The translations under genes were made by a program, and so were the position numbers. Positions 7,340 to 55,635 of a stretch of 64,000 bases of DNA are shown in pieces. The stretch is from the NCBI GenBank assembly GCA_045616425.1, contig JAZLGS010000025.1, positions 6,712 to 70,711 on the forward strand, written 5' to 3'. Position 1 is the first letter of the stretch. Every line of letters starts with the position of its first letter. A model generated the notes under the pieces. That model did not search any database. It worked only from the letters and a program-made list of their open reading frames with translations, and was not told the DNA's origin. This DNA is from Treponema sp. GTDB lineage: Bacteria > Spirochaetota > Spirochaetia > Treponematales > Treponemataceae.

Positions 7340-7734
7340 GTCATATCCTTAAAAATTGCTGCTGAAAAAATCTGCATTACCGTGGAAAATGTGCCAGAAC
7401 CCTCCGGGGCAACAAGTCGCAATGTCGGCCTGCCGCCTTCGAAGCCCAGCTTCTCGGAGACTCGCTAAAATTGCTTTCGCAATTTTCCGGCTTTGCCGTC
7501 GCTCCCTTCCGCCTTCGAAGCCCAGCTTCTCGGAGACTCGCTAAAATCGCTTTCGCGATTTTCCGGCTTTGCCGTCGCTCCCTACATATTTTCCACCATC
7601 ATGCAGTTAATTTTGCCATCAATTCTATATAGCCTTATAAATTTTAGAAGTAAATTTACATAGCAGTACGGCAACAGTCCGACTTGTTGCATTGAAATTC
7701 CTCATTAATCAGCAACACCATAAACAGACATAGC
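7340..7734 (+). mobile_element. MITE-like element copy with an internal tandem hairpin module
   Basis: Collinear with the reverse complement of 52885-53116 (AATCTGCATTACCGTGGAAAATG.GCCAGAACCCTCCGG.GCAACAAGT; CATGCAGTTAATTTT; GACATAGC end). About 150 bp extra at 7433-7583. Left TIR is degenerate. Confidence 0.7.
7433..7583 (+). repeat. Tandem 2 x 76-bp structured hairpin module (family A)
   Basis: CCGCCTTCGAAGCCCAGCTTCTCGGAGACTCGCT-[stem-loop]-CCGGCTTTGCCGTCGCTCCCT twice, starting at 7433 and 7509. Confidence 0.9.
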
Positions 7735-21307: not shown

Positions 21308-21365
21308 GCTATGTCCGTAAAAAGTGTTGCTAAAACATCCGCACTTTACTAAAAAAGAGGGTCCC
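21308..21365 (+). mobile_element. Isolated MITE left-end fragment
   Basis: GCTATGTCCGTAAAAAGTGTTG, identical to one TIR end of 52885-53116; continues like the 30694 copy. Confidence 0.65.
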
Positions 21366-21486: not shown

Positions 21487-21532
21487 TGTCATCCCGGATT
21501 TTCCCCGTCATCCCGGACTGGATCCGGGATCT
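21487..21532. repeat. GTCA-type REP palindrome (one partial and one full copy)
   Basis: TGTCATCCCGGA then CGTCATCCCGGACTGGATCCGGGATCT (ATCCCGGA/TCCGGGAT stem). Confidence 0.75.
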
Positions 21533-21601
21533 ATAAACAGATGCTGAAAAAGGCTAAGAAGAATTAATGGCAAAATTAATCGCATGGTGGTGGAAACTAC
21601 G

Positions 21602-21675
21602 TAGGGAGCGACGGCAAAGCCGGAAAATTGCGGAAGCAATTTTAGCGAGTCTCCGAGAAGCTGGGCTTCGAAGGC
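21602..21675 (-). repeat. Single family-A hairpin module joined to MITE internal sequence
   Basis: The reverse complement differs from unit 1 at 7433 only in the loop (TTCC vs TTTC) and is followed by the same CCAC...CATGC..TTAATTTTGCCAT junction sequence. Confidence 0.9.
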
Positions 21676-21737
21676 GCATAGAACAAAGAGGGAACCTGCA
21701 GGAATTATTTTTACAGGTATCCCCTTTTTTACCTTCC

Positions 21738-30693: not shown

Positions 30694-30745
30694 GCAATAT
30701 CCGTAAAAAGTGTTGCTGAAAATCTGCATTTTACTAAGAAAAAAG
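30694..30745 (+). mobile_element. MITE left-end fragment
   Basis: GCAATATCCGTAAAAAGTGTTGCTGAAAATCTGCATT matches the TIR and left end of the 52885-53116 family. Confidence 0.6.
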
Positions 30746-30833
30746 CGGGTCCCAGCGACGGAAAGAAGATCAGGTTCCTGTACTGGAAAACAGGAACCAT
30801 GTATCCCCAATGGTTCCCCCTTAGGCAACTACA

Positions 30834-30987
30834 CCTTCGAAGCACAGCTTCTCGGAGACTCGCTCAAAACTCACCTCGTGAGTTTTGCCGGCGTTGCCGT
30901 CGCTCCTGGGGCCTTCGAAGCACAGCTTCTCGGAGACTCGCTCAAAACTCACCTCGTGAGTTTTGCCGGCGTTGCCGTCGCTCCCTA
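30834..30987 (+). repeat. Tandem 2 x 78-bp family-A module, variant stem
   Basis: CCTTCGAAGCACAGCTTCTCGGAGACTCGCT-CAAAACTCAC CTC GTGAGTTTTG-CCGGCGTTGCCGTCGCTCC twice, starting at 30834 and 30912. Confidence 0.9.
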
Positions 30988-51550: not shown

Positions 51551-51560
51551 GTTTTCAAAT

Positions 51561-51841
51561 CCGACAAAATGGCTGTGCCACTTTGCGGTTTAAAACCATT
51601 CCATATGGTGACTTGTGCACCATAAAATAGTTTCGAAGCGACGGTTTCCGCGCTTCAAACCATTGGGTCTGCCGGCTTTTTGCCGGTGGGCCTTTTTTTT
51701 CCGACATAATGTGCTGTGCCACTTTGTCGGCTTAAAACCATTTCATATGGTGACTTGCGCACCATAAACTGGTTTCGAAGTGACGGTTTCCGCGCTTAAA
51801 ACCATTGGGCCTGCCGGCTTTTTGCCGGTGGGCCTTTTTTT
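51561..51841 (+). repeat. Tandem 2 x about 140-bp multi-hairpin unit ending in a terminator
   Basis: Units start at 51561 and 51701, roughly 90% identical by eye; each ends GG(T/C)CTGCCGGC-TTTTT-GCCGGTGGGCC-T7+. Confidence 0.9.
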
Positions 51842-51860
51842 CCAGAAAAATTCCTTCAGG

Positions 51861-51901
51861 ACAAAAAAAATCCTTAACGGCTGGATACCATTAAGGATTT
51901 T
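51861..51901 (-). terminator. Intrinsic terminator after purC
   Basis: AAATCCTTAA/TTAAGGATTT stem with a T tail on the minus strand. Confidence 0.65.
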
Positions 51902-51921: not shown

Positions 51922-52764
51922 TTACTTACAGATTCTTTCCTGACATTCGCGGTAAAGGGCTGATGTCTTTTCTACGATTTCTGCAGGGATGCTCTTGATT
52001 GAAGGGTCACCGGCAAGGTTATTGTCCTTGAGCCAGTCGCGTACAAACTGTTTGTCATAGCTTGCAGGGCTTGTTCCAATCTTGTATTCAGCAAGATTCC
52101 AGAAACGGCTTGAATCAGGAGTAAGAACTTCGTCTCCCAGCACCAGGTCACCGTTTTCATCAAGACCAAATTCAAACTTAGTGTCAGCAATGATGATGCC
52201 GTTCTTGTATGCGTGGTCGTAGCACTTCTTATAGATAGCAAGGGCAGCCTGTTCTATCTTTGTTCCAAGTTCTTCGCCCAGGTCATTCTTCATGTATTCA
52301 AGTGTCACGTTGATGTCATGGCCTTCTGCAGCCTTTGTAGAAGGAGTAACGATAGGACAGTCAAGCTTTTCTGCCTGCTGGTATTCCTTGTCAAACTTAT
52401 GGCCAAGAAAAGGTTCCCCTTTCTTGTAAGCTTCGTACATTGAACCGAACATATAGCCGCGTACGATTACTTCGTAAGGAATCATCTTGAGCTTCTTGAC
52501 AAGGATAGTACGTCCTTCGTATTCAGGCTTCTGGAATTCTTCAGGCATATCCTTAAGGTCAGAAGAAATCATGTGGTTCTTTACGATGTCGCCTGTAAGG
52601 CTGAACCAGTAATTTGAAAGTGCATTCAGTACCTTTCCTTTATCTGTAATCATTGTAGGCAGAATCACATCAAATGCCGAAATACGGTCTGTAGTAACAA
52701 TGACCATGCGTCCGTCTTCAAGGTCGTAAACTTCGCGGACTTTTCCACTGATAATCTTTTTCAT
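51922..52764 (-). CDS. purC: SAICAR synthase
   Basis: SGKVREVY, TDRISAFD, IADTKFEFG, DEVLTPDSSRFW. Confidence 0.98.
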   Translation of the reverse strand: MKKIISGKVREVYDLEDGRMVIVTTDRISAFDVILPTMITDKGKVLNALSNYWFSLTGDIVKNHMISSDLKDMPEEFQKPEYEGRTILVKKLKMIPYEVIVRGYMFGSMYEAYKKGEPFLGHKFDKEYQQAEKLDCPIVTPSTKAAEGHDINVTLEYMKNDLGEELGTKIEQAALAIYKKCYDHAYKNGIIIADTKFEFGLDENGDLVLGDEVLTPDSSRFWNLAEYKIGTSPASYDKQFVRDWLKDNNLAGDPSIKSIPAEIVEKTSALYRECQERICK

Positions 52765-52884
52765 AACAAATCCTTCTATTGATTAATATAATCTGCAAAA
52801 ATGCCTTTAATTGAATAATATCAAAGTTTTCAAAGTCCCACAATCGGAATTTTACACCATCACGGCAGACATGTATTTTTTTTT

Positions 52885-53116
52885 GCTATGTCCGGCGATA
52901 GTATTGCTGGATAATGAAGAATCTCGAAGTATCGATGCAGTGGTAAGAAACTACACTCGATGCTGATAAAGACTATGTAGAGTTAATGGTAAAATTAACT
53001 GCATGGTAGTAGAAAATACGACAGATTCCGACATTGCAACTTGTTGCACCGGAGGGTTCTGGCGCATTTTCCACGGTAATGCAGATTTTTTTAACAACAC
53101 TTTTTACGGACATAGC
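52885..53116. mobile_element. Intact 232-bp MITE-like element
   Basis: Perfect 10-bp TIR GCTATGTCCG/CGGACATAGC; T9 on both flanks (52876-52884 and 53117-53125), consistent with a target-site duplication; related copies at 7340, 21308 and 30694. Confidence 0.8.
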
Positions 53117-53250
53117 TTTTTTTTTGCTTCCGCACTACCAAAAAAAGGATTTATCCCCCATAATGGAAAAGCATATGCCTGCCTCTGAAAACATAGTTCC
53201 AGAGGTTTCCGGTATATTCTGCGCTGCTAACTTATTTACAGGAGGAACAG

Positions 53251-55635
53251 ATGAAGAAGACGGCACTTTTCCTGATGCTTCTTTCATTTACTACATTCAT
53301 TTTTGCACAGAACAAATACCCCACGGAAGATGAACTTACTCCGGGGCCTAAACCACAGGGACGGCCTTCAGTTGCACTGGTACTTGCAGGCGGAGGGGCA
53401 AAAGGATTTGCAGAACTCCCCATAATGGAACTGATACAGGAAATGGACATTCCGATTGACATGATCATCGGTACCAGTATCGGGTCAATAATCGGCGGCC
53501 TTTATTCTGCAGGATATTCTGCTGAGGAAATCGTAACGGAATTTGGAAGCACTGACTGGACGCCTTTGTTCAGCGATGCAGCAGTTTCTCCGTTTGAACA
53601 TATTCTGGGTGAACACAGCGTCTTTGAAAATCCGCTTGTAATCAATTTCAATACGAAATTCAAGATGCACCTTGGAAAAGGACTTTCCAGCGGGCAGAAT
53701 GTCTACCAGCTTTTCAAGGAAAAGACCATAAAATATCCGTCAGACATGAATTTTGACGACTTCCCTATCCCGTTCAGGGCAGTTGCCACAAACATGCTTA
53801 CCGGTGATGCAGTAATCCTTGACAAGGGCGACATAGCAGAAGCAATGCGTGCTTCCATGAGCCTTCCTGCGGTATTCTCGCCTTTTGAAATGGACGGCTA
53901 TTACTTTATGGACGGCGGCCTCCGTTACAACCTTGCAATCAATGTTGCAAAAAAAATGGGATATGACTACATCATTGCCATCGACATTTCCCAGCCGGTC
54001 AGGGACAATCCCGAAGTATTCGACTCAAATCCTGCGGTTGCCATCCTGAATACCATGACGATTGCACAGCAGACCGCCACAAAGCAGATGATAAAGGACG
54101 CAGACCTGGTAATAAAGCCGGATGTGGCAAATTATGCAACACTGGACTTTAAAAAGGCTAAGACAATCTTTAAGGAAGGACAGGCGGCAGCAGAAAAATA
54201 CAAGCCACAGATTGAAGAATTCCGCAGGAAACTGTTCCCGGAAGACTACACTCCGGACGGAAAGCGCATTTCCAAACATCAGGAAAAGGAAAAAAATGCA
54301 GAAAGTGCCTATTCTGCAAAAAAAGCTGTAAAACTTGATTCAATCAAAATAGACGGAGCACTTTCCCAGGATGAAAAATACATCGCCGAAGCCTTTAAGG
54401 AAATAAAGGGAAAGACTTACTCCATTCCTGTCATGAAAGACTTCATGAGGCACCTGTACAGCCTTGGAAACTACTCCAGCGTACGGCCGAAAATCATCAG
54501 GGCTGATGACGGCAGCTACAGGATGGAGCTTTACCTTACTGAAATATATCCAAAGGGCATAAAGATTCTTGTATCGCCGGAACTTGAACAGACCGTAAGT
54601 TCTTCAAGCATCACCACTTTCAACCTTGCAGCAGAAATCCAGGCCAGGGGAATTACAGGACGCAATTCTGTAATAGGATTACGGGGAAAATGCCTTAATG
54701 ATTACGAAGCTGAAGTTTTCTACATGCAGCCATTCAATCCGTATGTATATGTAGAAGCCAGTGCAGAGTATTACGATGACAGGTTCTATTCCCTTTCTTC
54801 AGAAGGAATGAGCAAATCAGATTTTTCAAGGTATGAAACCTGGAATGCAACGGCAGATGCAGGATTCAGGTTTGGACACGGAAGGACATTGAAAGCAGGC
54901 GGATTCTATACATGGTCAAGGAACTCCTGGGCCTCAATCAAAAATGACCCGTTCCTTAATGAATATGTGGCAAAATCACCGGATACAGCTAAAGACAGTA
55001 CCATTTCCGGAAGCTGTTTCGGTCCGTTCCTGAGCTTTACATTCAACGTAATAGACAGGACGACATTCGCCCATGAAGGAATTCACATAGAATCAAGTAC
55101 GAAACTGGTATTTCCTCAGAAAAAGCCGGAAAACATGTCAGTAGTAACAGACCTGCATTTTACAGGTGCAATCCCGCTAGGCGAAAAAGCTTCGCTCAAC
55201 GTGAATCTGCTGGCAGGCACGGACTTTACGGAAAGGCTTGCAGAAGACGCAGCACTTTACCTCAGCCAGGGCTTTTCAACAGGTGACAGGATGTTCTTTC
55301 CGCAGCTCCCGGCAAGAAAGCGCCACGGACAGGAAGTACTGGCTGCAACACTGGCATTGCAGCTTGAACCATGGGACAGCATAACGATCCTTGGTGGCAA
55401 AGTAATCCTCCGCATCCAGGGAACAGCCGGTAACCTTACAAAGACATGGGGACAGATGTTTGCGCCGGAAGGAAACGAGACTAAAGACTACCGCCTTTTG
55501 TGGAACGGCTGTCTCGGAATCGGCATCAAGCTCAAGGAAAACTTCAACTTCATGATCCGTGGCGGCGTAGGTTCAACGGAAGACACAGAAGTTGCACCGT
55601 TCCTTGCAATCGACATCGGCGGATTCAGGTTCTAG
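53251..55635 (+). CDS. Patatin-like phospholipase with POTRA-like linker and C-terminal beta-barrel (PlpD/type Vd-like)
   Basis: Signal peptide; GGGAKG, GTSIG, DGG catalytic motifs; beta-strand-rich C-terminus ending in F. Confidence 0.85.
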   Translation: MKKTALFLMLLSFTTFIFAQNKYPTEDELTPGPKPQGRPSVALVLAGGGAKGFAELPIMELIQEMDIPIDMIIGTSIGSIIGGLYSAGYSAEEIVTEFGSTDWTPLFSDAAVSPFEHILGEHSVFENPLVINFNTKFKMHLGKGLSSGQNVYQLFKEKTIKYPSDMNFDDFPIPFRAVATNMLTGDAVILDKGDIAEAMRASMSLPAVFSPFEMDGYYFMDGGLRYNLAINVAKKMGYDYIIAIDISQPVRDNPEVFDSNPAVAILNTMTIAQQTATKQMIKDADLVIKPDVANYATLDFKKAKTIFKEGQAAAEKYKPQIEEFRRKLFPEDYTPDGKRISKHQEKEKNAESAYSAKKAVKLDSIKIDGALSQDEKYIAEAFKEIKGKTYSIPVMKDFMRHLYSLGNYSSVRPKIIRADDGSYRMELYLTEIYPKGIKILVSPELEQTVSSSSITTFNLAAEIQARGITGRNSVIGLRGKCLNDYEAEVFYMQPFNPYVYVEASAEYYDDRFYSLSSEGMSKSDFSRYETWNATADAGFRFGHGRTLKAGGFYTWSRNSWASIKNDPFLNEYVAKSPDTAKDSTISGSCFGPFLSFTFNVIDRTTFAHEGIHIESSTKLVFPQKKPENMSVVTDLHFTGAIPLGEKASLNVNLLAGTDFTERLAEDAALYLSQGFSTGDRMFFPQLPARKRHGQEVLAATLALQLEPWDSITILGGKVILRIQGTAGNLTKTWGQMFAPEGNETKDYRLLWNGCLGIGIKLKENFNFMIRGGVGSTEDTEVAPFLAIDIGGFRF

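Follow-up and report, generated by a model that had tools for sequence, protein, structure and literature searches.

BOX elements of Streptococcus pneumoniae are short, non-coding intergenic repeats organized as boxA-(boxB)n-boxC, with variable internal units and a strong potential for secondary structure. The REP and BIME repeats of enterobacteria and pseudomonads are small clusters of imperfect palindromes, solitary or in tandem, which are intergenic and found genus-wide, and insertion sequences (IS) of the IS1595 family, as listed in ISfinder, have an ISXO2-like DDE transposase (PF12762) and produce 8-bp duplications of their target. The BrickBuilt MITE of Porphyromonas gingivalis (PMC4596501) is an intergenic repeat of a single species, present in 19 copies per genome, in which a "leader" and a "tail" with small inverted ends enclose a variable-number minisatellite made of a 23-nt unit. 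A census of 2024 reported that the Spirochaetes, including Treponema, are rich in MITEs; no earlier description of the family presented here was found in the literature searched.

The locus considered here, positions 52885-53116 of the window (i.e., the whole stretch of 64,000 nucleotides that was analysed), belongs to a highly abundant family of non-autonomous DNA transposons (MITEs) in a pig-gut Treponema. As in BOX, constant outer modules surround variable tandem units, a functional resemblance that is read from the architecture only; unlike BOX, the Treponema MITE has transposase-type inverted ends, 8-bp duplications and an IS partner, and its unit is 76 bp long, has three hairpins and is also found alone in related species. 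The likeness with BrickBuilt concerns the outer pieces with inverted ends around a variable-number repeat, the intergenic location and the one-species range, whereas the Treponema element differs in the length of the unit (76 nt), in its hundreds of copies and in having an identified partner transposase family; moreover, its internal repeat extends to more taxa than the MITE does. The module recalls REP/BIME in being a small cluster of imperfect palindromes, solitary or tandem, intergenic and genus-wide, and in having a central stem that varies with compensatory changes; in this genome, however, the units lie mostly inside a DDE-type MITE. With IS1595 the element has in common the terminal 23 nt, which are identical to those of transposase-bearing elements of Treponema and Spirochaetaceae, as well as the 8-bp duplication and the AT-rich targets, but it lacks a transposase, shares only about 27 terminal bases and has a variant left end, while the autonomous elements measure 2.6-3.2 kb and contain passenger genes and an extra internal end. 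The Treponema MITE is not filed as a member of BOX or of BrickBuilt, from which it is set apart by its hosts and, with respect to BrickBuilt, by its unit length (76 versus 23 nt). It is a known type of bacterial repeat, with a clearer link to a transposase than BOX or BrickBuilt, and not a new kind of system.

The copy is a 232-bp segment comprised between a T9 at 52876-52884 and another T9 at 53117-53125. Its first ten bases, GCTATGTCCG (52885-52894), and its last ten (53107-53116) are exact reverse complements; thus, the perfect 10-bp inverted ends and the T9 on both sides, reported in the preliminary description of this DNA, are exact. The copy and its site comprise the following features:

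52876-52884, + strand: left T9 run, i.e., a target-site duplication, of 8 bp if the family rule applies, and one further base of ambiguous assignment; a single T7-8 in the empty allele of related strains
52885-53116, + strand: module-free MITE copy of 232 bp, with left arm (about 52885-53016), 9-nt junction (about 53017-53027) and right arm (about 53028-53116)
52885-52908, + strand: left-type imperfect terminal inverted repeat (TIR), composed of GCTATGTCCG, 5 variable bases and AGTrTTGCT
53093-53116, - strand: right-type TIR, whose family consensus is identical to the ends of an autonomous IS1595-family element
53117-53125, + strand: right T9 run, second copy of the target duplication

The insertion site is a T-run in the intergenic region between purC and a patatin-like gene, which are divergent. 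The ORFs lying mostly inside the segment are chance ones only, of at most 61 aa, and a 99-aa ORF (53034-53333) overlaps its right end and continues into the flank. An optional GC hairpin of the right arm, 17-22 bp long (AGCGTGCTTTACACGCT), which is found in about half of the aligned family copies and in metagenome variants, is missing from this copy at 53055-53056. A promoter-like pair, TTTACA-17-TATTTT, identified by consensus match only, is located at 52851-52879 (+), overlapping the target T-run with its end and oriented towards the patatin-like gene; the insertion would place 241 bp between this pair and the gene, which starts at 53251. Just past the upstream gene, at 51560-51877, there is also a 142-bp tandem duplication, with two copies that are 92% identical.

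An allele without the element was found in pig-gut metagenome contigs from three studies, where 52875 is joined to 53118 (53119 in contig X5) via a single T7-8 run. The bridging contigs, i.e., X1 record 1 (2891 bp), X10 record 8 (916 bp) and X5, which has a shorter side, match 52500-52875 and then 53118-53500; they skip 242-243 bp, with an ambiguity of 7-8 T, and their flanks share about 92-97% identity with the window (a difference of about 3-8%). Thus, in related strains purC and the patatin-like gene are separated by one T7-8 run and the element is absent, which provides the empty site in sister strains that had been proposed as a check, and the single run in this allele shows that the T-run was duplicated on insertion. 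The 30 nearest reference genomes offer no orthologous site for comparison, since purC is present with 72-83% DNA identity but conservation does not extend to the intergenic region or to the gene next to it. In the same metagenome runs there are loose ends that depart from the element at 53007 and return to it at 53038, bringing module sequence, and therefore module-bearing relatives differ from the present copy exactly at the junction. The statements on habitat and strains are based on these metagenome contigs; in the index of sequencing runs, the word shares were at most 0.18.

The length of the target duplication was derived from the whole family. Flanks taken directly beside GCTATG are almost never identical (3 of 100 at k = 1), the reason being an additional terminal base in most copies, a G on the left and a C on the right; indeed, the usual family terminus, GGCTATGTCCG, is one base longer than that of the 52885-53116 copy. 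When the extra base is included, an exact 8-bp direct repeat is found in 21 of 93 elements and one with at most one mismatch in 35, versus 0.5 and 2.6, respectively, in shuffled pairings; no other offset or length of direct repeat was enriched among these 93 elements, and the duplicated 8-mers are 91% A/T. A 9-bp duplication was rejected as the family rule, since enrichment occurs only at offset 1 and length 8. Of the T9 target duplication proposed previously, what stands is that the T-run was duplicated on insertion, while the 9 bp are replaced, as a rule, by 8 bp with an extra terminal G...C. In the present copy the terminal base outside GCTATG is T...T, versus G...C in the family, and the T-run hides the difference between 8 and 9 bp: a T8 plus an odd terminal base is here indistinguishable from a 9-bp duplication, and 9 bp are possible for this one insertion. 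A preference for the T-tracts of terminators was also considered and discarded: over the 32 nt that precede the duplicated sites, folding is not stronger than in controls sharing the 8-mer (mean -2.7 versus -3.0 kcal/mol, p = 0.8).

A transposase associated with the same ends was identified in a congener, thus answering the question of a partner with identical TIRs. Treponema sp. MAG172 (contig JAEDIW010000010, L035:477-3714) contains a 3238-bp element that is bounded by the same 23-nt ends, is flanked by a perfect duplication of TTTAGTAA and encodes a 343-aa transposase with a zinc ribbon and a DDE_Tnp_IS1595 domain (PF12762, E = 4e-13). Further complete IS copies with perfect 8-bp duplications were found in a goat-caecum Spirochaetaceae MAG and in a Treponemataceae MAG, more distant complete copies in Mucispirillum and Eubacteriales, and in T. 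saccharophilum DSM 2985 the same left end lies beside a transposase that is 75% identical; the autonomous elements are 2.6-3.2 kb long. The match between MITE and IS is limited to the terminal 22-27 nt, so that a derivation of the arms from the IS was rejected, and within the terminus the 5 variable bases set the left end of the MITE apart from the IS end. ISL3, considered in view of the 8-bp duplication and the GGCT ends, was excluded as a parent, since PF01610 is absent from the genome and the ends flank an IS1595-type transposase. Because the ends are identical and the duplications are of equal length, an IS1595-family transposase probably moves the MITE in trans, as far as can be judged from sequence.

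In its own 94%-complete assembly, the PF12762 profile gave 0 matches, and by tblastn the sole transposase trace in this genome corresponds to residues 319-342, the last 24 codons, at C84:3978-4049, 92% identical to the congener protein; the MITE is presumably immobile at present in this genome. The distance between the 24-codon remnant and the left end of a 412-bp MITE copy is about 75 bp. Among the passenger ORFs of the MAG172 element there is one for a 442-aa protein with matches to DUF723, DUF4379 and the CapR-homology domain; the element also has an additional end in its interior, at 2290, the third in all, which could let alternative end pairs transpose. In the same congener, three single IS-type ends in one orientation are located on contig C48 (L037:504-2275), each followed by a small ORF of 154-176 aa; these ORFs have no Pfam match and are mutually related, an organization that looks like an end-linked cassette array.

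The census of the family was performed on the assembly to which the window belongs (2.95 Mb, 91 contigs, 94% complete). BLAST of 52885-53116 against this genome returned several hundred matches; the 23-nt terminus pattern occurs 435 times with at most 4 substitutions, and the 24-nt right terminus 130 times with at most 2 mismatches, versus 0 for the reversed control. Inward-facing pairs of termini less than 3 kb apart number 100 and enclose in most cases 110-470 bp; the elements measure 100-470 bp. Closed pairs of 716, 1604 and 2356 bp were rejected as autonomous copies, as they are unrelated ends bracketing ordinary genes. Two end types can be distinguished, both formed by GCTATGTCCG, 5 variable bases and AGTGTTGCT, the variable bases being GCTAT-like on the left and TAAAA on the right; the family consensus TIR is imperfect and about 24 bp long at both. 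The inverted ends shared with an autonomous IS, the target duplications, the hundreds of copies and the empty allele bear out the non-autonomous nature that had been attributed to the element. The family accounts for about 2.4% of the assembled bases, and 57 of the 182 contig ends (31%) fall inside it, indicating that it is a main cause of the fragmented assembly and that the true copy number is higher. A second, unrelated MITE family of 256 bp is also present in this genome, with 8 copies that are 90-94% identical, right-type ends on both sides and no hairpin modules:

C27:25009-25264, C31:48271-48526, C67:953-1208, C82:4169-4424, C84:33731-33986 and others, own genome: copies of the 256-bp family

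Within the window, further copies and fragments of the family are found:

7343-7734, - strand: sister MITE copy with a two-unit array at the junction, recognized by alignment to 52885-53116
7429-7583, - strand: two tandem 76-bp three-hairpin modules (A units), from TRF and profile search
21308-21335, + strand: isolated right-type terminus, exact over 24 nt
21540-21676, + strand: MITE fragment with no termini, i.e., left-arm element positions 75-136 (21540-21601), then one A unit (21606-21676)
30694-30984, - strand: reverse-oriented MITE remnant, with a degenerate right-type end (30694-30730), a B-type spacer and two variant A units (30832-30984)

Aligned with 52885-53116, the reverse complement of 7343-7734 gives three blocks, with 90%, 84% and 76% identity, and the two differ substantially at one place only, where the sister copy has two 76-bp units instead of the 9 nt between GAAAATA and CCGACATT; the alignment, together with the TRF tandem, agrees with the collinearity and the two-module replacement described previously. 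The 11-bp internal inverted repeat said to bracket this cargo is also exact, with GCAACAAGTCG at 7409-7419 and CGACTTGTTGC at 7680-7690. The fragment at 21540-21676 corresponds to the one-module piece that had been placed at 21.55-21.68 kb. At 30.7 kb, a MITE end is indeed present about 100-140 bp before the variant tandem, but it is a degenerate right-type end and not the left end that had been proposed.

The ends, the arms and the module have different taxonomic ranges. Module-like units were detected in 24 of the 60 congeners searched and the 24-nt terminus in 7 of 60, while the MITE body, i.e., the arms, was found in none of the 60 at E <= 1e-6. At 20 inspected congener loci from nine genomes the units are solitary (two in tandem at one locus) and have variable central stems, without these arms or ends. 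The occurrence of the module alone in 24 of 60 congeners, and of the arms in none, suggests that the module was captured by the MITE. In two congeners (G055 and G006; L015-L022) the solitary module is flanked by a short inverted pair, GTCATCCCGAAC ... GTTCGGGATGAC, which may represent a different small hairpin element; a motif resembling this pair is found in the window at about 21490-21530.

A profile search of the genome identified 261 units in 175 arrays. A correctly facing terminus lies within 330 bp of 136 of the 175 arrays, for a family that occupies about 2.4% of the genome, and hence the association of modules with the MITE is far beyond chance; about 23 arrays have no recognizable arm or terminus nearby. 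Oriented closed elements consist of a left arm, 0-4 units and then one of several right-arm forms, and the 80 oriented elements have 0 (35 elements), 0.5 (2), 1 (25), 2 (12), 3 (5) or 4 (1) units. The 0, 1 or 2 modules per copy of the preliminary description are therefore found, between the same two arms, within a range that extends to 4. Cargo number is weakly clustered on the tree of the arms (31 changes versus 35.5 +/- 2.2 in shuffles); this tree is unrooted, 53 of its 76 inner branches are unsupported, and reading the order of cargo gain and loss from it was abandoned, since it is too poorly supported.

Whether the module-free form is derived is a first point on which alternative readings can be weighed. 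According to one of them, the 232-bp form lost its whole array once, from a module-bearing ancestor, and then spread by transposition. Six module-free copies, including 52885-53116, share the junction ACGACAG(G/A)TTCCGACATT and are mutual best matches with 80-86% identity, and two of the six have their own perfect 8-bp duplications; furthermore, the module-free state is modestly clustered on the arm tree (19 changes versus 25.9, with counts this low in 3 of 500 shuffles), internal deletions abound throughout the family and all other subfamilies are dominated by module-bearing forms. However, the junction (...CAGGTTCCGAC...) is not an exact CAGG-to-CAGG deletion product, as its extra TT is unexplained by a simple recombination of the flanking CAGG repeats, and the unrooted, little supported tree does not allow polarity to be read. 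Thus, the deletion from a larger ancestor, which had been offered previously as an alternative, is a real possibility for the module-free form, at somewhat under even odds: the shared junction speaks for it, the extra TT and the unrooted tree against it.

A second reading is that the 76-bp module is an independently mobile cassette, which inserts in a specific orientation into a preferred site (approximately CAGG) of an originally empty MITE and has been loaded repeatedly. Its existence without these arms in congeners would fit, as would the arrays with no recognizable arm or terminus, the short AGG/CAGG repeats that bracket arrays, the collinearity of the best-preserved loaded copies with empty ones up to the junction, and the divergence of the module-free subfamily (80-86%), which equals that of the whole family. 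On the other hand, polarity is near-invariant: downstream of the array, with the unit read forward, there is a right-type terminus in 108 cases and a left-type one in 3. The junctions are of many types on both sides, since arrays follow at least six different sequences on the left, and on the right they abut the full right arm at two points, a 60-70-bp B module or directly the last 23 nt. The edges of arrays often consist of partial units (model positions 1-62, 35-76), and units are 93.7% identical within arrays versus 87.7% between them, the nearest neighbour being in the same array for 38 of 97 units (expected, less than 1). In addition, the module is not associated with a recombinase or any other machinery, and solitary units in other species lack duplications or inverted ends of their own. 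Repeated targeted insertion is consequently unlikely, and the swappable cargo and the fixed site of the preliminary description do not hold in that form, the site being fixed only coarsely; "chassis plus cargo" is apt in a descriptive sense only. Polarity, edge partial units and within-array similarity point instead to tandem duplication and deletion inside an inherited array, and copy number changes mainly in this way and not by repeated targeted insertion; slippage or recombination would be the mechanism.

A still more doubtful variant is that the module is a cassette that integrates by itself at a specific site and in a specific orientation, adding a second, nested level of mobility, and that it loads into a CAGG site of the MITE, perhaps via a hairpin-recognizing host or IS enzyme; if so, the MITE would be a dissemination vehicle for a genus-wide structured repeat. 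Finally, that the segment is a host-encoded structured RNA or regulatory region, with the terminal repeat and the T-runs as terminator or attenuator features, is highly improbable: its single-strand folding is strong (z -4.8 on the + strand and -7.6 on the - strand) and it is intergenic between divergent genes, beside a promoter-like site, but Rfam gave two tRNAs and no other match in the whole window, the dispersed copies, in their hundreds, have locus-specific 8-bp duplications and ends identical to those of a transposase-bearing IS, and the absence of the element from the locus in related strains, a presence/absence polymorphism, already contradicts it.

The preferred explanation, an IS1595-mobilized MITE mosaic with an inherited module array that duplicates and deletes, is assigned as a whole a probability of about 0.8. 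According to it, an IS1595-family DDE transposase acting in trans would recognize the imperfect ends of about 24 bp (GGCTATGTCCG, 5 variable bases, AGTGTTGC), and insertion into an AT-rich 8-mer, here the T-run between purC and the patatin-like gene, duplicates this 8-mer. The element would be a mosaic of three layers, i.e., ends shared with the IS, lineage-specific arms and, between them, an inherited array of the 76-bp three-hairpin unit. IS1595-type ends may have come to flank lineage-specific DNA that contained, or later received, the genus-wide hairpin repeat; the extra internal end of the autonomous element suggests how alternative end pairs could mobilize foreign segments. The repeat would be older than the MITE and would have been captured once or a few times; afterwards the number of units, from 0 to 4, probably changed for the most part through tandem duplications, deletions and recombination between short AGG/CAGG homologies, while transposition would have copied whole arrays to new loci, multiplying the repeat about two-hundred-fold. 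In this view, the 52885-53116 copy belongs to a small, old, module-free subfamily, which was itself able to transpose.

The MITE family, for which both an empty allele and a transposase partner have been identified, thus represents about 2.4% of the assembled bases of a gut Treponema and about a third of the breaks in its assembly. The evolutionary range is a different one for each of its three parts, namely the transposase-binding ends, the lineage-specific arms and a host hairpin repeat of much greater age, which shows how such elements are built. These data can be used for the annotation and assembly of spirochaete genomes, for strain typing by insertion polymorphism and unit-number variation, and for the study of how a REP-like repeat is amplified by hitch-hiking on a transposon.
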